Shown: positions 7,753-36,160 of the stretch, in pieces
How the letters are laid out: each line of letters opens with the position of its first letter
Numbering within the stretch: position 1 is the stretch's first letter
From: Nitrospirota bacterium
GTDB taxonomy: Bacteria > Nitrospirota > Thermodesulfovibrionia > Thermodesulfovibrionales > JdFR-86
NCBI GenBank assembly: GCA_037386965.1
Contig: JARRLN010000001.1
Location: 5,323-69,322 of the forward strand
Reading direction: 5' to 3'
DNA: 64,000 nucleotides
Notes under the pieces: generated by a model
Seen by the model: the letters and a program-made list of their open reading frames with translations, nothing else
The model's database searches: none
Told to the model about the DNA's origin: nothing
Translations under genes and position numbers: made by a program

Positions 7753-7764
7753 GTCATATCTTAT

Positions 7765-7779
7765 GCAGAAGATGTGCCA
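7765..7779 (-). promoter_or_regulatory. Candidate sigma-54 (-24/-12) promoter abutting the CheY-like gene
   Basis: The minus strand reads TGGCAC-ATCTT-CTGC. The GG and GC are separated by 10 nt. The GC element lies 12 nt before the ATG at 7752. Confidence 0.35.
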
Positions 7780-7870: not shown

Positions 7871-8587
7871 TTAAGACCTCTTGGGCACGGTGAGCACGGC
7901 CAGGGTCCCCTGCCCCGAAGCCCCGGAAAGCTTTACCTCGCCTCCCAGGACCTCCATGATGCGGCTCACCCTGAAAAGGCCAAGGCCCAGGGAGCCGGGC
8001 TTCCTCGCAAAGAAGGGCTCACACGCCTGGGTGATGTCCTCCGCCTCCATGCCCTGCCCGTCGTCCTGCACGGTGAGGACCACGGACTCCTCCTCGGCGA
8101 AACCCCGAACGTCCACCCTCTTGCCCTTGGCCTCCAGGGCGTTTCTCACCACCTCGGAGAGGGCCTCCCTGAGCCCGTCCGCCCGGGTCTCCACCACCAC
8201 CCCGCGGGCGCACTGGGTTGTCAGGGCAACGCCTTGGTCCCTGGCCTCGGGCGAAACGGTGTCCACCACCTCGGCCAGAATCGAATCCAGCGCGACCGTG
8301 CCGCGGCCGCCGCAGTCGGGACGGCAGGCGTCGGCAAAGGCGTGAAGCGCAGCGGCGGCTTTCCCGACGCCGGACTCGATGCTCTTTACCATTTCCCGGG
8401 TGTCGGCGTCCTTATGCATTTCCTTCAGGATGAAGGCATAATTCAGGGAGGAGGCAAGGGAATTGCTCACCTTGTGGGAGAGCCTGGAGGCAAGGCGGGC
8501 CAGGAAGTCGGAACTTTCCGAACTTTCCCTCTCCGGAGGGCGGCTCTCATTGCCCTCTTTTCTCTTATCAGGTCCGGGAGAGGCCAT
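7871..8587 (-). CDS. Soluble histidine kinase with DHp and HATPase_c domains only (no sensor domain, no TM segment)
   Basis: It has an H-box (RLSHKVSNSLASSL), an N-box (VVRNALEA) and a G-box (GSLGLGLFRVSRIMEVLGGEV). It is only 238 aa and overlaps the upstream activator gene by 20 bp. Confidence 0.8.
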   Translation of the reverse strand: MASPGPDKRKEGNESRPPERESSESSDFLARLASRLSHKVSNSLASSLNYAFILKEMHKDADTREMVKSIESGVGKAAAALHAFADACRPDCGGRGTVALDSILAEVVDTVSPEARDQGVALTTQCARGVVVETRADGLREALSEVVRNALEAKGKRVDVRGFAEEESVVLTVQDDGQGMEAEDITQACEPFFARKPGSLGLGLFRVSRIMEVLGGEVKLSGASGQGTLAVLTVPKRS

Positions 8588-9914
8588 ATTTTTTCAGCTT
8601 GCTGTAAAGGCTTGACCGCGGGATGCCCAGCATCCTGGCCGCCTGGTACTTGTTGCCTCCGCTTTCCCTGAGGGCCTTCTCCAGGAGGTCCTTTTCCGCC
8701 TCATCGAGACGGGAAGGGCCTTCGCCCCCGTCCTCATCGCCCAGCGGAGGCAAGTCGTACGCCTGTATCTGCTTTCCGGAGGCCATGATGAGGGCGTGCT
8801 CGATGGCGTTTTCCAGCTCCCGGACATTGCCCGGCCACGTGTGGCCCATAAGGACCTTGAGGGCGTCCTTCGTCACGCCGGAGGCGCTGCCGCCGGCCTT
8901 CTCCCGGTGTTTCTGAACGAAGTGCATGGCCAGGGCCAGGATGTCGCTCTTTCTCTCCCTCAGGGGCGGCACCCGGATGGTGACGATATTCAGGCGGTAA
9001 AAAAGGTCCTCCCGGAACCGCCCTCCCCGCACGGCGTCCCTCAGGGGCTGGTTGGCCGCCGCGATGAGGCGTATGTCCACGGGAACCTCGCGCCTGCCCC
9101 CCAGGCGCTGGATGGCGCTTTCCTGGAGGGACCTGAGGAGCTTGGCCTGTGAGAGCAGCGGCAGGTTGCCTATCTCGTCCAGAAACAGCGTTCCCCGGTG
9201 CGCTTGTTCGAACTTCCCCGGCCGGCTGCTCATGGCCCCCGTGAAAGCGCCCTTCTCGTATCCGAAGAGCTCCGATTCCACCAGCCCCTCGGGAATGGCC
9301 CCGCAGTCCACGGCCACAAAGGGGCCCCCGGACCGCTTGCTCCGCCGGTGGATGAGGCGGGCAACCACTTCCTTGCCCGTGCCGGACTCTCCTTCGATGA
9401 GCACCGCGCTCTCGCTGGGGGCCACGGTGCCGACGAGGCGCAGGAGCTTCTTCACCGAGGGATGCGAGCCCACGAAATGCCTCTCCGTAAGCTGGTCCAT
9501 CTGCTCGATGAGGTCTCGCCGCTCCGACAGGGCCGTATAGAGCTGCTCGGCGCGGTTGGCCATCTCCAGAAGGTGTTCGGGGTTGACCGGCTTGGTGATG
9601 AAGTCGAAGACTCCCGCCTTCATGGCGCCGACGGCGGCGTCGATTGTTCCCTTTCCGGTCACCATGATCATCTGGACCTCGGGCAGAATGTCCCGGAAAC
9701 GCGTGAGAAGCTCCGTTCCCGGCAGGTCGGGAAGCACGAGGTCGCAGACCACAACGGGCACGGGCCGGTCGGCGAAGAGGCGGACGGCTTCTTCGCCGCA
9801 TGCGGCGGTCATGGCCTCGTAGCCCCGGGAGGCGAAGACCGCACGCAGCGACTCCAGAATGTCCGGCTCGTCATCGACGATGAAAATTCTCCGTGCCTCG
9901 TCCGCAACACTCAT
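8568..9914 (-). CDS. Sigma-54-dependent response regulator (NtrC family: receiver + AAA+ + Fis-type HTH)
   Basis: It has a receiver domain (IFIVDDEPDILESL), Walker A (GESGTGKEV) and the GAFTGA sigma-54 contact loop (EKGAFTGA). The C-terminus carries an HTH (GNKYQAARMLGIPRSSLYSKLKKYG). Confidence 0.9.
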   Translation of the reverse strand: MSVADEARRIFIVDDEPDILESLRAVFASRGYEAMTAACGEEAVRLFADRPVPVVVCDLVLPDLPGTELLTRFRDILPEVQMIMVTGKGTIDAAVGAMKAGVFDFITKPVNPEHLLEMANRAEQLYTALSERRDLIEQMDQLTERHFVGSHPSVKKLLRLVGTVAPSESAVLIEGESGTGKEVVARLIHRRSKRSGGPFVAVDCGAIPEGLVESELFGYEKGAFTGAMSSRPGKFEQAHRGTLFLDEIGNLPLLSQAKLLRSLQESAIQRLGGRREVPVDIRLIAAANQPLRDAVRGGRFREDLFYRLNIVTIRVPPLRERKSDILALAMHFVQKHREKAGGSASGVTKDALKVLMGHTWPGNVRELENAIEHALIMASGKQIQAYDLPPLGDEDGGEGPSRLDEAEKDLLEKALRESGGNKYQAARMLGIPRSSLYSKLKKYGLSRT

Positions 9915-15993: not shown

Positions 15994-17364
15994 ATGCGAA
16001 ATATGCAGACAGTCCTCATTGTCGAAGATAAGGACTCCATGGCCCGCATGCTCAAGGAAACCCTGGAGGCCGAGGGCTACAGGGCCCTGACAGCACAAAA
16101 CGAGGCCGAGGGTCTTCGAAAAATCAAGCAGGAGTCCTCCGACCTTATTCTTACGGACCTGAAACTCCCCGACGGCGACGGGCTTCGCATCCTTCGGGCT
16201 TCCCGGGAGGAAAACCCCCTGAGGCCCGTTATCGTCATGACCGCGTTCGGCTCCGTGGAGACGGCCGTGGAGGCCATGAAGGAAGGCGCCTACGACTTCA
16301 TAACCAAGCCCTTCAACGTGGAGCACCTCCTGGTGCTCATACGAAGGGCCACGGAGAACCAAAGGCTCCTGACCGAAAACATCCTTCTCAGGGAGGAGCT
16401 GGCCTCTCACCTGGGCCTTCCCACCATCATAGGGCGGAGCGAGGGCATCCAGGACCTGGCCCGTAAAGTCCAGAAGGTCGCCCCCGCAAGGACGACAGTT
16501 CTACTTCTGGGAGAAAGCGGCACCGGCAAGGAGCTCTTCGCCCGGGCGGTCCACCACCTGAGCGGCCGTAAGGACTACCCCTTTGTCCCGGTCAACTGTG
16601 CCGCCATCCCCAACGACCTTCTGGAGAGCGAGCTTTTCGGCTACGAGAAGGGAGCCTTCACGGGGGCGGAGTCGCGCAAGCTCGGGAAGTTCGAGCTTGC
16701 CCACGAGGGAACCATATTCCTTGACGAGATAGGGGAGCTTCACCCCTCCTTGCAGGCCAAGCTCCTGAGGGTCCTGCAGGAGGGCGAGGTGGAGCGCGTC
16801 GGCGGCACGAAGGCCGTCAGGGTGGATGTCCGCGTCGTGGCGGCCAGCAACAGGGACCTCGAAAAGGCCGTCCAGGAGAAGGCGTTCCGCGAAGACCTCT
16901 TCTACCGCCTCAACGTCTTCCCGCTGAGGATTCCGCCGTTGAGGGAAAGGCCCGAGGACATCCCCCTTCTGACGGAATACTTCGTCAAGAAGTACGCCAG
17001 GGAGCTCAAGATGCCCGAGAGGACCATTTCCGGGGAGGCCGTGGGAATGCTCCAGGGCTATCGCTGGAAGGGAAACGTCCGGGAGCTCGAAAACACCGTA
17101 GAGCGGGCGATGATTCTCGCCGAGGGCGGCCGCATCGAGCCCGAGCACATCTCCCTTGCCCCCGACGGTGCGCCGGGACTTTTTCCAGGGGCTCCCGGGG
17201 CTTCCCTGGATGAGGTGGCCCGGTTTGCCCTCCGGCAGGCGGAGACCGGGCACATTCGTCGAGCCCTCCAGGAGTCGGGCGGCAATAAGAGCAAGGCGGC
17301 CCAGAGTCTGGGGGTCAGTTACAAGACCCTCTTGACGAAAATAAAGGACTACGGTATCCGGTAG
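15994..17364 (+). CDS. Sigma-54-dependent response regulator (NtrC/AtoC family)
   Basis: It has a receiver domain ([14 protein letters not shown]...[14 protein letters not shown]), Walker A (GESGTGKEL) and the EKGAFTGA loop. The C-terminal HTH reads [25 protein letters not shown]. Confidence 0.9.
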
Positions 17365-30470: not shown

Positions 30471-30807
30471 GCACGCTCCTCCTCATCTTCATCCTACTAC
30501 AGGGATTCACGCGGGGGAACGGCACTCCGCATATGTCTTCCCGTTTGTCTCACATTAGAAAGATTAAGCCCTATCTGTTACTGATTGTAATCCTTCCCAT
30601 AGACCGTTAAGAATTCCATAATCTTCTGTCGGAATTATTTGCAAAAATACACCCCAAGATAAGCAAGGATTCAGAAATCCCCATAAAAACAATGCTTTTA
30701 TATAAGGCATATATTTTGCTTTTACAAAATTTCAAGGGGATGTGGTCATCTAATTAAGACAGAGAGGAGGGCGTCAAGGAATCCTTGCGGGACAGGCACC
30801 TGTAAAA

Positions 30808-30822
30808 GGGCACGAATATTGC
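30808..30822 (+). promoter_or_regulatory. Sigma-54 promoter (-24/-12) of the PEP-CTERM beta-propeller gene
   Basis: The site reads GGGCAC-GAATA-TTGC. The GG (30809-30810) and GC (30821-30822) are separated by exactly 10 nt. It lies about 40 bp upstream of the ATG at 30862, and AAGGAGG sits between the two. Confidence 0.6.
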
Positions 30823-30861
30823 CTGCTCGATTCTTAATAAGACCAGCGAAAGGAGGTCTCC

Positions 30862-31851
30862 ATGAGAAGAGTCGCTATCATAGCGACGTTGTTCATGTTG
30901 TTAGCATGGACGGGCATTGCCTCGGCCCTGCCGTACACACAGGGAAACGTTTTCGTATCCCTCCGGGACGGGACGGTCCAAGAGTACACCCCCACCGGAA
31001 CCCTGGTGCAGACCCTCAGCACGCCTTCATCTGGGGAGTTGACGGGTTCGGCCTTCGATTCGAGCGGCAACTTTTATGTGACAGCAGGGTTCTCGCTACA
31101 ACCCGCAGGTGGTATTTACAAATTCGATTCCAGCGGCAACCTGGTGTCGCCCTCCCCATTTTTCACGAACCCTTCTGTCAATGGCTCGACCAATGAATCT
31201 ATCCTGTTCAACATAGCCGGGATGGCACTGTCGGGGACGGCCGACGGAGACAGAACTGTCAACCTGTTTGATCCCAGTACGGGTGGAAATCCTGTCACCC
31301 AGTACAGTGTCGCGACGCAGGACCGGGGGAGCGACTGGATCGATCTTGCAGCCGACCAGACGACCCTCTACTACACCTCAGAGGGCTCCAGGATTCTCAG
31401 GTACGACCTCGACACCAGCACGCAACTGACAGATTTCACCAACGAGGGGTTTAACCTGTTTGCCCTCAGGCTTCTTTCAAGCGGGGGGATTCTGGCCGCC
31501 GACACTAATAAGGTCCTTCGGTTCGACAGCAGCGGGAACGTTGCGCAGACGTACCTGCCCGGTTCCGGCTTGCTCTTCGCCCTGAATCTCGACCCGGATG
31601 GCACCTCCTTCTGGACCGCGGAATATTATACAGGCGACATATACAATATCGACATCGCCACCGGCACCATCCTTAACCAATTTGATATCGACCAGGGAAT
31701 CAGCGGACTGTCGGTCTACGGCGAGATAACCCAAGGCGGCGGCGGCGGAGGAGGAGGGGGTGGAGAGCCCATTCCCGAGCCTTCCACACTATTTCTTCTC
31801 GGCAGCGGGTTCCTGGGGCTTGCGGCGTTCAGAAGGCGATTCAGAAGATAG
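30862..31851 (+). CDS. Secreted beta-propeller-like repeat protein with Gly10 linker and C-terminal PEP-CTERM sorting signal
   Basis: It has a signal peptide (MRRVAIIATLFMLLAWTGIASA). Repeated blade motifs occur (AFDSSGNFYV, KFDSSGNLV, RFDSSGNVAQ, LDPDGTSFW). The C-terminus reads GGGGGGGGGG-EPIPEPSTLFLLGSGFLGLAAFRRRFRR, i.e. PEP motif, TM helix and Arg cluster. Confidence 0.8.
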   Translation: MRRVAIIATLFMLLAWTGIASALPYTQGNVFVSLRDGTVQEYTPTGTLVQTLSTPSSGELTGSAFDSSGNFYVTAGFSLQPAGGIYKFDSSGNLVSPSPFFTNPSVNGSTNESILFNIAGMALSGTADGDRTVNLFDPSTGGNPVTQYSVATQDRGSDWIDLAADQTTLYYTSEGSRILRYDLDTSTQLTDFTNEGFNLFALRLLSSGGILAADTNKVLRFDSSGNVAQTYLPGSGLLFALNLDPDGTSFWTAEYYTGDIYNIDIATGTILNQFDIDQGISGLSVYGEITQGGGGGGGGGGEPIPEPSTLFLLGSGFLGLAAFRRRFRR

Positions 31852-31901: not shown

Positions 31902-31953
31902 AGGGCGCTCCTCCTGTTAATAGTCTAACGACATTGGATGGGAGGAGCGCCCT
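31902..31953 (+). terminator. Long-loop hairpin downstream of the beta-propeller gene (possible terminator)
   Basis: There is a perfect 13-bp inverted repeat, AGGGCGCTCCTCC (31902-31914) / GGAGGAGCGCCCT (31941-31953). The loop is 26 nt and the hairpin is followed by TCTTTAT. Confidence 0.45.
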
Positions 31954-32230: not shown

Positions 32231-32251
32231 TGGCGCGCCCAGGAGGATTCG
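32231..32251 (-). repeat. Partial duplicate (21 nt) of the tRNA-Arg(ACG) 3' end; putative distal att site
   Basis: TGGCGCGCCCAGGAGGATTCG is identical to 36084-36104 and in the same orientation. Confidence 0.85.
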
Positions 32252-32360: not shown

Positions 32361-34178
32361 TCAGGGAAGACGTTTGAGGAGTCTTTCCGCTTCCTTCGCC
32401 TCTTTGAAATCCCGAGAGATCGAGAGAGCCTTCTCTACGCTGCGCCGTGCGGCCTCCGCGTTGCCCGAGGCCCGGTACGCCTCGGCTAGGTGATAAAGGA
32501 TGGTTGGGCTATTCGGCGACAGAGAGGTCGACTTCTCGAGTGTATCCAGGGCTTCCTTTGTCCTGCCAAGCTTGAACAGAACCCATCCAAGGGTATCAAG
32601 AATCATGGCGTTTTCGCCCGCCGAGGAGGCGGCCCTCCGCGCCATCATCAGGGCTTGGTCGTTGTCCCCTCTTTCAAGCTCTAGCATCGCCAGGTTGTTG
32701 AGGGCGTACACATGCTGGGGATCATTTGCAATGATATCCCGATACATCTTTAGTGCACGGAGTTTGTCCCCCGCGTCCTGGTAGAGGGCGGCAAGGTAAA
32801 ACATGTCATCGGGATTATCGGGGCTGGCCTTCCGGAGCTGTTCTGCGGCCTCGATTGCCTTTTTCAGGTCGCCTTTCCGTACGTACGTTACGCTCAGGGC
32901 CTTGAGAATCAGCGGCTCACTCGGGGCAAGCGAGAGAGCTTTGCCAAGTTCATCGAGTGCAATATCGTATTTCTTGACATAACCGTAAAAGAGGCCAAGT
33001 TCGTAAAAAGACAAGGGTGAGTCCGGAAACCTCCGGGACATTTCCTTGAATGTCTCTTCGGCGAGGTCCATCTGGCCAATCATCTGATACGTTGAGCCGA
33101 GCAAGTCGTAAATTTCAATACCCGCGTTCCCGGAGCCCACTATTTCAGTGTAAATCTTTATCGCTTCTGCGGGTTTTTCCTCGCGGAGGTACACATCTGC
33201 AATCCTCTTCCGGGCAAAAAGTGGATCAGGGCTTAGGTCTGCGGCCCGCTTGTAGCACCGCAGCGCTTCTTCGTATCGTCCCATCGCAAAGAGCGTCTCT
33301 CCAAGCTGGTAATGTCCGACAGACCACTCAGGCTTTATCTCTGTTACTTTCTGTAGTTCCGCGAGGGATTCCTGGTATTTCCCCTTTTCCCTATATGCCA
33401 TCCCTAGCGGAAGGCGGGCCCTCTCCGTGTCGGGTTCGAGTTTGAGGGCGGTCTTAAAATGGTCAATGGCTTCGTTCACCCTGTCCGTGTTCAGATAAGC
33501 GGAGCCAAGCACGATATGCGCCGTGGCACCACCTTTATCTCTGGTAATGAGTCCCTCAAGCAGCGCAATGGTCTTTTCGTACATCCTCGAAAGGTTATAG
33601 AGCCGCCCCAGGTTTACCTTGACTCCTACATACTCGGGTGGTGTCCCCCTTATGCCTTTTCCATAATGTTCGACGGCCTGCTGATACTTACCTTCGTCCT
33701 CGTATATCAGCCCGAGCCTTTGGTGGGCTCTCCGGTTTTGAGGATTTATCTTGATGGCCTGGAGGAATTTCTCTTTAGCTTTCTTCTGTTGGCCCTGCGC
33801 CATATAGATGTCGCCTATCTTGGTGATGGCTGAATCCGCGGAAGGGTCCAGTTCAACGGCCCTTTTAAGGGCCTTGAGACCTTCGTCAACCTGTCCCTTC
33901 ATGACCAACGCGGCCCCGAGGATTTCCTGGGCGGGGGCAGAGCCGGGGTCGTCTTTCAGCACTTCCCGGACCTTCTTGATTGCAGCATCGTATCGACCAT
34001 GGTTCAGAAGGGCAAGGGCCTCAGCCAGAGACTTCTGCCCAGGAAGAACCTGTATCTGTTCGGGGGTTATGTCGATTACCGGGAAGGCCTGAGAAACCGC
34101 GATGTCAAATGTCAGGGATGCAATCGCCCCCGCGACAAACATGCACAACCAGAATAATGCTCTCCTCGTCATTTTCAA
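32361..34178 (-). CDS. Secreted or membrane-anchored tetratricopeptide (TPR) repeat protein
   Basis: The N-terminus is hydrophobic (MKMTRRALFWLCMFVAGAIASL). More than 12 tandem 34-aa TPR-like units follow (recurrent A..Y...G....A...F..AL..dP). It is 605 aa. Confidence 0.85.
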   Translation of the reverse strand: MKMTRRALFWLCMFVAGAIASLTFDIAVSQAFPVIDITPEQIQVLPGQKSLAEALALLNHGRYDAAIKKVREVLKDDPGSAPAQEILGAALVMKGQVDEGLKALKRAVELDPSADSAITKIGDIYMAQGQQKKAKEKFLQAIKINPQNRRAHQRLGLIYEDEGKYQQAVEHYGKGIRGTPPEYVGVKVNLGRLYNLSRMYEKTIALLEGLITRDKGGATAHIVLGSAYLNTDRVNEAIDHFKTALKLEPDTERARLPLGMAYREKGKYQESLAELQKVTEIKPEWSVGHYQLGETLFAMGRYEEALRCYKRAADLSPDPLFARKRIADVYLREEKPAEAIKIYTEIVGSGNAGIEIYDLLGSTYQMIGQMDLAEETFKEMSRRFPDSPLSFYELGLFYGYVKKYDIALDELGKALSLAPSEPLILKALSVTYVRKGDLKKAIEAAEQLRKASPDNPDDMFYLAALYQDAGDKLRALKMYRDIIANDPQHVYALNNLAMLELERGDNDQALMMARRAASSAGENAMILDTLGWVLFKLGRTKEALDTLEKSTSLSPNSPTILYHLAEAYRASGNAEAARRSVEKALSISRDFKEAKEAERLLKRLP

Positions 34179-34284: not shown

Positions 34285-34320
34285 AAAAAGCAGGCACGGG
34301 TAATTGACCCGTGCCTGCTC
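34285..34320 (-). terminator. Rho-independent terminator of the vWA/PEP-CTERM gene
   Basis: The stem is GCAGGCACGGG/CCCGTGCCTGC with a 7-nt loop. On the minus strand it is followed by TTTTT, 16 bp after the stop at 34336. Confidence 0.65.
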
Positions 34321-34335
34321 GCCTTGATGTTCAAT

Positions 34336-35451
34336 TTACTTCCCGAACTTCATACTTCTCACACCGACAAGACCTAAAAGACCGACTCCCACCAGCAGAA
34401 AAGTTGCAGGCTCCGGCACGGCGGCTGCTGCGCCACCCACCGTAAATCTGTCGCTTTCTATGGCAACAATGCCCCCGTCAACGAGCGCATCAATGCTGAA
34501 AGCATGCGTTCCGGCTTCAAGACCGGTAAAGGTTACATCAAAGGCAAACGTCATGTCGGTGTCACGCGAGAAGTCACCCAGATAAGACGTAGGGCTTATG
34601 GAGACGCCTACGCCCGGCAGGTTGCCATCCGCCATCAGGGACACCTCGCTATAGGACGCAAAGACGGACGCCAGGGCGTCATCGATCACGGTGACGATCT
34701 CACCCGAAGTCACACCGCTGAACAGGTCGCCTCCGGTGGCGTCGGTGATGGCAGTCGCCTGACCGGTAGAGTTCAAACCTCCCAGGTCGATTGCCTCCAC
34801 AACAACATTCTCCGCAGTGAGAGAACCGATGGCGTCAGAAAGCCCTATATCGGATGGATATGAGGCCTCCAGGTCCCCGTCATGCCCCGGAGCATCGCCG
34901 AACCAGACGACTATCTTTGTAGCGTCGTCCCGCCAACTGGTCGTGGTGGCCACTTGGTCAAGCGCATAAAGGTTGGCCTCAGGAGTGTCGCCGCCACTGC
35001 CAGCGACTGCGTCCAGCGAACCGATTGCGCTTTGCGCTGCGGTGGCGTCCGTCGTGATATCCTGGACCAGCTCGTAGGCTACATCGCCCGGGAGGCCGTA
35101 AGGAGACACCGGAAAATCCTCGTAGTCGCCCACGCCGAACGCCACGTCCCCCAGCCCCGAGGCATTTGAGAGAATCGTGGAGGCGTTGGTCTGCGCGGAG
35201 GATATCAGTGGAGCCATGCTTCCCGTGGTGTCAAACAGGAAGAAGACGTCCACCTTTGCCGTTGTGACGTCCGAGGTTACGGTCACCGTCTTTTCAACGG
35301 TGAGGCTCTCACCCACATCGATAGACGCTGAAACCGAAGCCGGGCTGATGGTGTCCGCTAATGCGACGTACGGCAATGCCAGAAGAAGCGCAACACAGAG
35401 GGTGAGCAAAAGCTGCACCTTTCTTCCCATTGCTACTTTTGGTCCTTTCAT
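34336..35451 (-). CDS. Secreted von Willebrand factor A (vWA) domain protein with C-terminal PEP-CTERM sorting signal
   Basis: It has a signal peptide (VQLLLTLCVALLLALPYVALA). The MIDAS-like motif is DVFFLFDTTGSM, with ...GGDTPE and VVWFGDAPGHD further on. The C-terminus reads AAAAVPEPATFLLVGVGLLGLVGVRSMKFGK. GGAGGTG lies 7 nt upstream of the ATG. Confidence 0.85.
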   Translation of the reverse strand: MKGPKVAMGRKVQLLLTLCVALLLALPYVALADTISPASVSASIDVGESLTVEKTVTVTSDVTTAKVDVFFLFDTTGSMAPLISSAQTNASTILSNASGLGDVAFGVGDYEDFPVSPYGLPGDVAYELVQDITTDATAAQSAIGSLDAVAGSGGDTPEANLYALDQVATTTSWRDDATKIVVWFGDAPGHDGDLEASYPSDIGLSDAIGSLTAENVVVEAIDLGGLNSTGQATAITDATGGDLFSGVTSGEIVTVIDDALASVFASYSEVSLMADGNLPGVGVSISPTSYLGDFSRDTDMTFAFDVTFTGLEAGTHAFSIDALVDGGIVAIESDRFTVGGAAAAVPEPATFLLVGVGLLGLVGVRSMKFGK

Positions 35452-35507
35452 TTCTTTTCACCTCCCTTCCAGGTTTTTCGGTTTATCGGGAATCGGACCG
35501 ATTACAA

Positions 35508-35522
35508 GCAAAAGACGTGCCC
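35508..35522 (-). promoter_or_regulatory. Sigma-54 promoter (-24/-12) of the vWA/PEP-CTERM gene
   Basis: The minus strand reads GGGCAC-GTCTT-TTGC, the same form as the 30808 site. The -12 element lies about 57 bp upstream of the ATG at 35451. Confidence 0.6.
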
Positions 35523-36083
35523 ATTTAGAACATCCGGATTTTAAATGATAGTTTTCTCAACGTCTGTGGGCTAAACTATCTTTTGTAAAATCCTCCGACA
35601 CAAAATTCGAGAAAGTTTACATATCATAGGCCGTATGAATGATGGTCATAATTCGTTAATGGTAGGTGCAGCTTGAGATGCGAATCTGTTGGGAAACCAT
35701 GACATTCACGATAGGAAATCCCGCAACCAGGCGGAACCGGACATTGAGCACCTCAGAGTACCTTTTTCGGAGGGCGCAAGGTAGTCAACGTTATCCCAGA
35801 CTTGATGCAGGTCCATAACCGGAGAAAGCGGCGCGACGGTGCCGGTCCGTGCGCCACCAGCCGGGAGTTTTCAGCCATGCGCCGTATGTCGGCTCTCGCA
35901 TTTTCGAAGGTACGACGTGGTCAGTGGGTCAGACCTCGGGGCCGCCTCAGAGAGGCTGACGGATGTGCATCGGGAAGCACAAGAAGTCCTCGAACGGAAA
36001 GGAGATGGGCAATTTCGAACACACGAAACAAGCACAAAGGGCTCCCGCAAAGATGACCGGAAGCCCGCAAGTGCTTGAAAATA

Positions 36084-36160
36084 TGGCGCGCCCAGGAGGA
36101 TTCGAACCCCCGACACTCGGATTCGTAGTCCGATGCTCTATCCGGCTGAGCTATGGGCGC
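36084..36160 (-). tRNA. tRNA-Arg (anticodon ACG), CCA encoded
   Basis: Manual cloverleaf: acceptor GCGCCCA/TGGGCGC, D stem GCTC/GAGC, anticodon stem TCGGA/TCCGA with loop CTACGAA, T loop TTCGAAT, discriminator G, then CCA. Confidence 0.9.

Follow-up and report, generated by a model that had tools for sequence, protein, structure and literature searches.

The locus described here raises the question of how two neighbouring genes, each encoding a protein with a PEP-CTERM anchor, are switched on in a 64-kb stretch of DNA from a Nitrospirota bacterium (the whole stretch of 64,000 nt is referred to as the window). An earlier note on this DNA had placed the two genes, which encode a beta-propeller protein (gene A) and a protein with a vWA domain (gene B), in a small sigma-54 regulon. 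Our analysis indicates that the cis-elements in front of both genes are likely to be PEP-CTERM-box promoters of the PrsR/sigma-54 type. The proposal is borne out insofar as a sigma-54-type promoter and, ahead of it, an activator site are present at both genes, which form one regulon; the regulon itself is not new and corresponds to the PEP-CTERM box of Haft et al. 2006. The locus is a fresh example of this already published switch and reveals no new mechanism.

Both PEP-CTERM genes are preceded by a composite sigma-54 box

In the original survey most PEP-CTERM genes form an operon of their own, with over 200 nt of non-coding sequence in front. In Proteobacteria this sequence contains a 17-nt motif 1, which ends in TTTACA, a spacer of 62.8 +/- 10.6 nt (range 32-92) and a 17-nt sigma-54 motif 2; the latter is located 71 +/- 38 nt before the ATG with a range of 23-221 nt. 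The box co-occurs with the kinase PrsK, the NtrC-type activator PrsR and the TPR protein PrsT (Haft et al. 2006, PMC1569441). The corresponding features of the window are the following.

30862 to 31851, plus strand: gene A, secreted beta-propeller protein with Gly-rich linker and PEP-CTERM anchor, 329 aa (family matches, structure model, termini)
34336 to 35451, minus strand: gene B, vWA-domain PEP-CTERM protein, 371 aa (family matches)
35584 to 35600, minus strand: activator site (motif 1) of gene B, TGTCGGAGGATTTTACA, 12 of 12 consensus positions, 62 nt upstream of GGCAC
35507 to 35522, minus strand: sigma-54 promoter of gene B, GGGCACGTCTTTTGCT, predicted transcription start near 35497
30627 to 30643, plus strand: activator site (motif 1) of gene A, TGTCGGAATTATTTGCA, 11 of 12 consensus positions, ends in TTTGCA
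30705 to 30720, plus strand: P1 of gene A, sigma-54 -24/-12 core, AGGCATATATTTTGCT, GG at 30706-7 and GC at 30718-9, predicted start near 30730
30808 to 30823, plus strand: P2 of gene A, sigma-54 promoter, GGGCACGAATATTGCC, exact GGCACG-N4-TTGC, predicted start near 30833
30720 to 30729, plus strand: decamer TTTTACAAAA, shares its first base with the end of the P1 16-mer, directly behind the -12 GC, and covers the predicted P1 start
30850 to 30856, plus strand: ribosome-binding site AAGGAGG of gene A (direct reading)

The PEP-CTERM identity of genes A and B is evident from scores of 23.5 with TIGR02595 (cut-off 16) and of 29.7 and 28.5 with PF07589 (cut-off 20.7); the C-terminal tails of the two proteins read IPEPSTLFLLGSGFLGLAAFRRRFRR and VPEPATFLLVGVGLLGLVGVRSMKFGK. 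The model of protein A is an all-beta propeller with a pLDDT of 89, and its top PDB matches in a fold search are propeller proteins.

The consensus of motif 1, TGTCGG-N5-TTTACA, was re-derived independently from four homologue loci. The source set comprised 80 genome loci encoding beta-propeller homologues, six of which have a sigma-54-like site upstream; four of these six also have TTTACA 58-71 nt further upstream. The four loci come from annotated betaproteobacteria (L028, L044), from a gammaproteobacterium (L042) and from an unclassified source (L051). Membership in motif 1 was scored against this consensus together with the metagenome matches described below and not against the logo of Haft et al. 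When up to one mismatch is allowed, the consensus has two matches in the window, where 0.08 are expected. Each of them is followed, after exactly 62 nt, by GGCAY-N5-TTGCT, a pattern which is likewise found only twice in the window.

The region in front of gene B is a textbook case: TGTCGGAGGATTTTACA (35600->35584) is followed by 62 nt and then by GGCACGTCTTTTGCT. The bases flanking this promoter are also typical of the metagenomic boxes (a score of 3.6 against a training-set mean of 3.75). The earlier note had pointed out that the promoter form and a decamer seen at gene A recur upstream of the vWA gene. Both are indeed present on the minus strand, with GGGCACGTCTTTTGC at 35522->35508, the decamer at 35590->35581 and the ATG at 35451. 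The vWA-gene promoter together with this decamer is a canonical PEP-CTERM box, in which the decamer is the 3' end of motif 1; most of the second decamer copy is contained in the gene B site.

The motifs, their spacing, their association with the PEP-CTERM genes and the terminators behind these genes can be read directly from the DNA. The 17-nt motif 1 with its TTTACA end and a motif 2 with the -24 GG and -12 GC are both present, and the distance between motif 1 and the GG is 62 nt at gene B as well as between motif 1 and P1 of gene A. Both genes are single-gene operons behind more than 200 nt of upstream DNA, with intergenic regions of 391 nt and 632 nt. The ATG is 39 nt away from P2, 142 nt from P1 and 56 nt from the gene B promoter, all of which fall within the published range of 23-221 nt. 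The 165 nt between motif 1 of gene A and P2 are outside the published spacer range. Every cis-acting feature of the PEP-CTERM box is found in the window, and the sole departure is from the 2006 statement that its hosts are proteobacteria.

How far single elements could arise by chance was judged from the window as a whole. The pattern GGCAC-N5-TTGC has only two sites in the 64 kb with 0.49 expected, and at least two sites occur in 7 of 100 shuffles, so that it is marginal alone. The exact decamer also has only two occurrences in the window. The earlier note had suggested a scan with a sigma-54 weight matrix. In the window, and with a rough matrix from approximated Barrios 1999 frequencies, several coding-region sites score equal to or above the promoter candidates, so that the -24/-12 match taken by itself does not rise above the background. 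It is the combined context that stands out. The joint pattern is intergenic, lies on the gene strand upstream of the only two PEP-CTERM genes and has the activator motif at a fixed spacing of 62 nt, and in this combination it is far from chance.

The spacers are A+T-rich, as the earlier note had described them. For IHF, which the earlier note had mentioned as often bending such spacers, there is no convincing site: the spacer of gene A contains one weak match (30690-30702), in which the conserved C is missing, and the spacer of gene B contains none. The TTTACA could also be taken for the -35 box of a sigma-70 promoter; this was rejected as no partner -10 element is present on the gene strand at either decamer.

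From this architecture we infer binding by an activator, sigma-54 dependence, the start site used and the existence of PrsR in the genome. An activator of the PrsR type from the NtrC family would bind to the 17-nt TGTCGG-N5-TTTACA element, which lies at 35600->35584 in front of gene B and at 30627-30643 in front of gene A. The bound activator would loop across the A+T-rich spacer of 62 nt and spend ATP to open sigma-54 RNA polymerase, which is poised at the -24/-12 promoter; the predicted target is 35522->35507 at gene B and P1 (30705-30720) at gene A. P2 (30808-30823) would serve gene A as an additional sigma-54 promoter, driven either from the same site at a distance of 165 nt or by a different activator. 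Each PEP-CTERM gene is a single-gene unit closed by a hairpin, and the cognate activator is probably encoded outside the window and is neither of the two activators inside it.

The box and its spacing in metagenomes

We scanned metagenomes with the pattern TGTCGG-N5-TTTACA-N{50,80}-GGCAC-N5-TTGC (loci L087-L206). This composite pattern has at least 120 matches, while about 7 are expected by chance under an assumed database size. The gap from motif 1 to GGCAC has its peaks at 52-54, 63-65 and 74-76 nt; the middle peak alone accounts for 76 of the 120 matches listed. The clustering of the gaps at these values indicates a helical phasing of about 11 nt. It provides a spacing rule for the PEP-CTERM box, with gaps of about 53, 64 and 75 nt, that can be used elsewhere. 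Among the matches listed at least 55 of 94 complete downstream open reading frames (ORFs), which were crudely called, end in a PEP-CTERM tail.

The same matches define the extent of the activator site. The bases flanking the 17-mer are unconserved among the matches listed; therefore the AAAA of the decamer is not part of the site. Extra copies of motif 1 are common, with 24 among 105 boxes (matches listed), and they cluster upstream of the proximal one at distances of about 89-103 and 160-196 nt. The GTCG core is the best-kept part in these other copies.

One of the metagenomic loci (L186:67-1559) is a gene for an NtrC-family activator, which is itself preceded by a PEP-CTERM box and by a second, adjacent motif-1-like copy. 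The encoded protein reaches 431.8 on the PrsR model, which has a cut-off of 502.6. PrsR-like activators outside of the curated family may exist.

Two sigma-54 cores and a decamer in front of gene A

Gene A differs from gene B in having two candidate promoters. The core of P1, GGCATATATTTTGCT (30706-30720), begins exactly 62 nt past motif 1, which is equal to the spacing at gene B. P2 is located 103 nt downstream of P1 and corresponds to the promoter of the earlier note; the sigma-54-type GGGCACGAATATTGC is present at 30808-30822 on the plus strand with its last base 39 nt before the ATG at 30862, and the AAGGAGG reported in the leader is also there. In the rough weight matrix P1 scores 14.5 and P2 scores 11.7. 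We estimate the probability of a chance match like P2 at that position to be about 1e-3. The bases flanking P2 score like random sequence (-4.2) when compared with the 120 metagenomic boxes listed. P2 is probably a second promoter of gene A. The most likely architecture of gene A, as far as its sequence tells, is one in which P1 belongs to a canonical box and P2 is an additional, unusual promoter. An origin of the two leaders of P1 and P2 by tandem duplication was considered and rejected, since 26 of 300 shuffled sequences align equally well and the similarity is thus not significant.

A near-palindrome of 17 nt, TGCTTTTATATAAGGCA at 30693-30709, overlaps the -24 element of P1. It was considered as a second activator site and set aside because it is not statistically significant alone.

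The decamer has a different position at gene A than at gene B. Its location at 30720-30729 on the plus strand is as reported, and it lies within a tract of 70% A+T (30680-30760) in a window of 38% A+T. The earlier note had combined these elements in one model: gene A is transcribed from P2, both genes share the decamer as their activator site and the protein that binds it is one of the two activators encoded in the window (8568-9914 or 15994-17364). We regard this model as unlikely. It has in its favour that no exact GGCACG-N4-TTGC match other than P2 precedes gene A, that P2 is at a typical distance from the ATG, and that the exact decamer is confined to the two promoter regions. However, the conserved unit is the 17-mer and not the decamer, of which the trailing AAAA is unconserved. 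At gene A the decamer has only the TTTACA half of the site; the 17-mer which ends in this TTTACA (30710-30726) fits 8 of 12 positions and has no GTCG core, and the best site, 30627-30643, is further upstream than the positions named in the earlier note. The gap of 82 nt between the decamer and P2 is outside the phased peaks, which were seen up to the 80-nt limit of the scan. The decamer as shared element can consequently be kept for the vWA gene, while at gene A it is probably not an activator site.

The variation between strains bears on the same question. In a related strain (L207; asparaginase 96% identical) nine changes fall into 30471-30626 and one (30798) between motif 1 and the ATG. In five assemblies from the same population (L001-L005; 99.9% identical) four of the 4-6 differences over 6.1 kb are at 30696, 30721, 30754 and 30764; these four changes are transitions clustered in 69 nt. 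The gene A decamer varies as a result: position 30721 is a C in the five assemblies, and the decamer there reads TCTTACAAAA. This argues against the decamer as a binding site, but variants with CTTACA in place of TTTACA are found in genuine extra copies of motif 1, so that the change at 30721 need not abolish binding. Motif 1, P1, P2 and the whole gene B box are intact in all three haplotypes. The intact elements fit with constraint, in a sample that is too small for proof.

The alleles of the window at 30696, 30721, 30754 and 30764 agree with the more distant strain and hence look ancestral. The change at 30696 turns the near-palindrome of the five assemblies into ATGCCTTTATATAAGGCAT, a perfect 7-5-7 palindrome.

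The activators encoded in the window

The two proteins that the earlier note had named as regulators are encoded by the following genes.

8568 to 9914, minus strand: NtrC-family sigma-54 activator, candidate 1, below the cut-off of the PrsR model
15994 to 17364, plus strand: NtrC-family sigma-54 activator, candidate 2, below the cut-off of the PrsR model

Both have receiver, sigma-54-interaction (GAFTGA) and Fis-type helix-turn-helix domains, and the view that they are sigma-54 enhancer-binding proteins with the GAFTGA motif proved correct. Their presence in the window is a sign of sigma-54 machinery in the host. Their role as cognate regulators of the PEP-CTERM genes is not supported. The best family match of the first activator is the PrsR model, by 19 bits, which speaks for the model of the earlier note. 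However, both proteins score at about 435 with a cut-off of 502.6, and they are only 41% and 37% identical to the box-associated activator from the metagenomes. No PrsK-type kinase is found beside either of them in the window; the first activator gene is followed by a gene for a soluble kinase of 238 aa, which is not PrsK. The orthologues of the first activator (53-69% identity) are lineage-typical, generic sigma-54 regulators of Thermodesulfovibrionales and Nitrospirota. On these grounds both proteins were rejected as PrsR. We predict that the cognate activator is encoded elsewhere in the genome.

Several points weigh against PEP-CTERM boxes of the PrsR/sigma-54 type at the two genes. The activators in the window reach 436.6 and 434.9 bits on the PrsR model compared with the cut-off of 502.6, and no PrsK, PrsR, exosortase or rpoN gene is visible in the 64 kb of the window and the roughly 17 kb of flanking DNA that was read. 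P1 has GGCAT and not GGCAC, an A in place of the T ahead of the GG and a distance of 142 nt from the ATG. The arrangement of P1 and P2 is without precedent among the metagenomic matches listed, where tandem sigma-54 promoters occur in 0 of 111 boxes. The start sites at P1, P2 and gene B are sequence predictions only; at a sigma-54 promoter transcription is expected to begin about 11-12 nt past the -12 GC. The host is a Nitrospirota metagenome-assembled genome (MAG), and in the survey of Haft et al. the motif was confined to Proteobacteria. The two genes also have a foreign composition, with a G+C content at third codon positions (GC3) of 0.64-0.69 as compared with 0.81-0.88 in their neighbours, and the boxes are possibly imported and idle. 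The organism that is called "Nitrospira multiformis" in the original survey is, we assume, the betaproteobacterium Nitrosospira multiformis.

Genomic setting and origin of the boxes

The foreign composition of the PEP-CTERM genes extends over a segment from 30.5 to 36.1 kb, in which the GC is 0.54-0.56, compared with about 0.62 in the whole window, and the GC3 is 0.63-0.69, compared with 0.81-0.88. The segment is adjacent to a tRNA gene with a repeat of its end.

36084 to 36160, minus strand: tRNA-Arg(ACG), the 3' end of which faces the low-GC segment with the PEP-CTERM genes
32231 to 32251, no strand assigned: exact direct repeat of 21 nt of the tRNA-Arg 3' end (att-like), E = 1.5e-7, at the far edge of a 3.85-kb segment

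The repeated stretch is made up of the last 21 nt of the tRNA-Arg including CCA (36084-36104 and 32231-32251), and such a repeat of a tRNA end is the usual signature of integration at a tRNA. The 3.85-kb low-GC piece between the two copies carries a TPR gene and the vWA gene with its box. The tRNA end, the repeat of its 3' end and the atypical composition are those of a tRNA-integrated island. An integrase is not among its genes: next to the tRNA-Arg, two ORFs in 35452-36083 have no family match and the six-frame translation contains nothing integrase-like. Gene A is located just beyond the repeat and is also compositionally foreign with its low GC3; two insertions in tandem are possible.

The box could have been inherited with the gene family of gene A. 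This was rejected: no box is present at its nearest homologues, which are 57% and 53% identical, and the same holds for 76 of the 80 genome loci. Since the nearest homologues are without it, the box goes with a PrsR-type host or donor and not with the protein family.

A second alternative to functional boxes is that they are imported relics, which were acquired horizontally from a PrsR-bearing donor; the host would have no matching activator, and the genes would be silent or expressed from other promoters. The low GC and GC3 of the segment are in line with this, as are the 21-nt repeat, which bounds part of the segment, and the absence of PrsK, PrsR and exosortase genes from the window and the flank of about 17 kb. 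A weak sigma-70-like site at 30594-30622 and the four clustered substitutions within 30696-30764 in the sister assemblies point in the same direction. On the other hand, near-perfect motifs with an identical spacing of 62 nt are retained in both boxes, and motif 1, P1, P2 and the gene B box are intact in every haplotype. PEP-CTERM proteins require an exosortase (Haft et al. 2006), and therefore the host very likely has the system. Taken together, we consider relics to be decidedly unlikely. A chance resemblance in A+T-rich intergenic DNA is extremely improbable: although the -24/-12 match by itself is no better than the coding-region background, motif 1, the 62-nt gap and the sigma-54 core occur together twice on the gene strand upstream of the only two PEP-CTERM genes, and in metagenomes this composite is likewise linked to PEP-CTERM genes.

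With PEP-CTERM boxes of the PrsR/sigma-54 type as the preferred reading, both genes can be assigned to the exosortase/PrsR regulon in an annotation. The boxes predict a system of the PrsK/PrsR type and a tightly switched expression of matrix proteins in this uncultured Nitrospirota organism, and they widen the known phyletic range of the PEP-CTERM box past the Proteobacteria. The locus also offers a concrete case of cargo genes which move jointly with an enhancer-dependent promoter. A more far-reaching scenario, which we put forward tentatively and with more doubt than confidence, is that a box of the proteobacterial PrsR/sigma-54 type functions in a Nitrospirota (Thermodesulfovibrionales-like) cell after it had arrived on a small integrase-less island at the tRNA-Arg. 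The cargo genes for surface proteins would bring along an enhancer-promoter cassette of their own and thereby join a PrsR regulon that is already resident, and one of them would have gained a tandem second sigma-54 promoter, which could be open to the input of a different activator.

Comparison with known systems

The arrangement in the window shares with the box of Haft et al. motif 1, a spacer of about 60 nt, the -24 GG/-12 GC, a short leader, a single PEP-CTERM gene, a large intergenic region and a TPR gene nearby. It differs in its Nitrospirota host, in the two tandem sigma-54 cores of gene A, in the location of the genes in low-GC DNA beside a tRNA gene and in that the window and the flank of about 17 kb contain no PrsK or PrsR.

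The closest experimental counterpart is pepA of Aquincola tertiaricarbonis RN12, for which RpoN-dependent transcription from a mapped -24/-12 promoter was experimentally shown; pepA is followed by a terminator and by prsT, the transcription of which is RpoN-independent (PMC9850573). For Zoogloea resiniphila a control of a PEP-CTERM gene by PrsK/PrsR and RpoN is described by Gao et al. 2018, as cited in PMC9012009. The locus resembles these pepA genes in the order of upstream enhancer, -24/-12 promoter and PEP-CTERM gene, followed by a terminator and a TPR gene. The TPR gene is also similar to prsT of Aquincola in that it lies behind a terminator and has a sigma-70-like site. In contrast to the two species, the cargo here is a vWA protein and a beta-propeller and not the small PepA, and the locus is known from sequence alone.

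Promoters of the NtrC/glnAp2 type have in common with the boxes an activator site about 80-180 nt upstream, a helically phased spacer and an AAA+ activator that carries GAFTGA. Unlike in these promoters the site is TGTCGG-N5-TTTACA, with TGT-N11-ACA ends, and not the NtrC dyad, and no IHF site was found in the spacers.

Neighbouring genes and minor observations

Both PEP-CTERM genes are followed by predicted hairpins, and a third gene lies between them.

31902 to 31953, plus strand: terminator-like hairpin after gene A, fold z-score -4.05
34289 to 34319, minus strand: intrinsic terminator behind gene B, stem of 14 bp and then UUUUU, -31 kcal/mol, z-score -3.9
32361 to 34178, minus strand: PrsT-like TPR protein of 605 aa between genes A and B, TIGR02917 272 with a cut-off of 312

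Because a strong hairpin is present behind each PEP-CTERM gene, both are single-gene units. The best family match of the TPR protein is PrsT, yet it remains below the cut-off. It differs from the PrsT of Haft et al. in its length (605 aa compared with 899 in the model) and in an N-terminus without a lipobox. The TPR gene probably has its own sigma-70 promoter, for which a promoter-like site at 34237->34210 is a candidate.

The remaining window contains housekeeping genes such as thrS, infC, pheS, pnp, mutS, bamA and others. Genes for exopolysaccharide (EPS) synthesis are absent from the window. A search for known RNA families found none in the leaders and only the two tRNAs.

In protein A the PEP-CTERM anchor is attached to the propeller by a run of ten glycines (residues 291-300; 31780-31810). 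The family to which its beta-propeller domain belongs is spread over many phyla and extends to contigs with an archaeal assignment (Methanoperedens, Nitrososphaerales), and its genes are mostly without a sigma-54 box (loci L007-L086). The genes just upstream of the window (L212:1-6584) encode a carbon monoxide dehydrogenase (CODH)/acetyl-CoA synthase, which suggests an anaerobic Wood-Ljungdahl lifestyle. A further and good sigma-54-like site, TGGCACATCTTCTGCA at 7764-7779 on the minus strand, ends about 12 nt before the ATG (7752) of a gene for a single-domain response regulator. This gene is located downstream of the first activator and the small kinase; a leaderless transcript or an autoregulation is possible.

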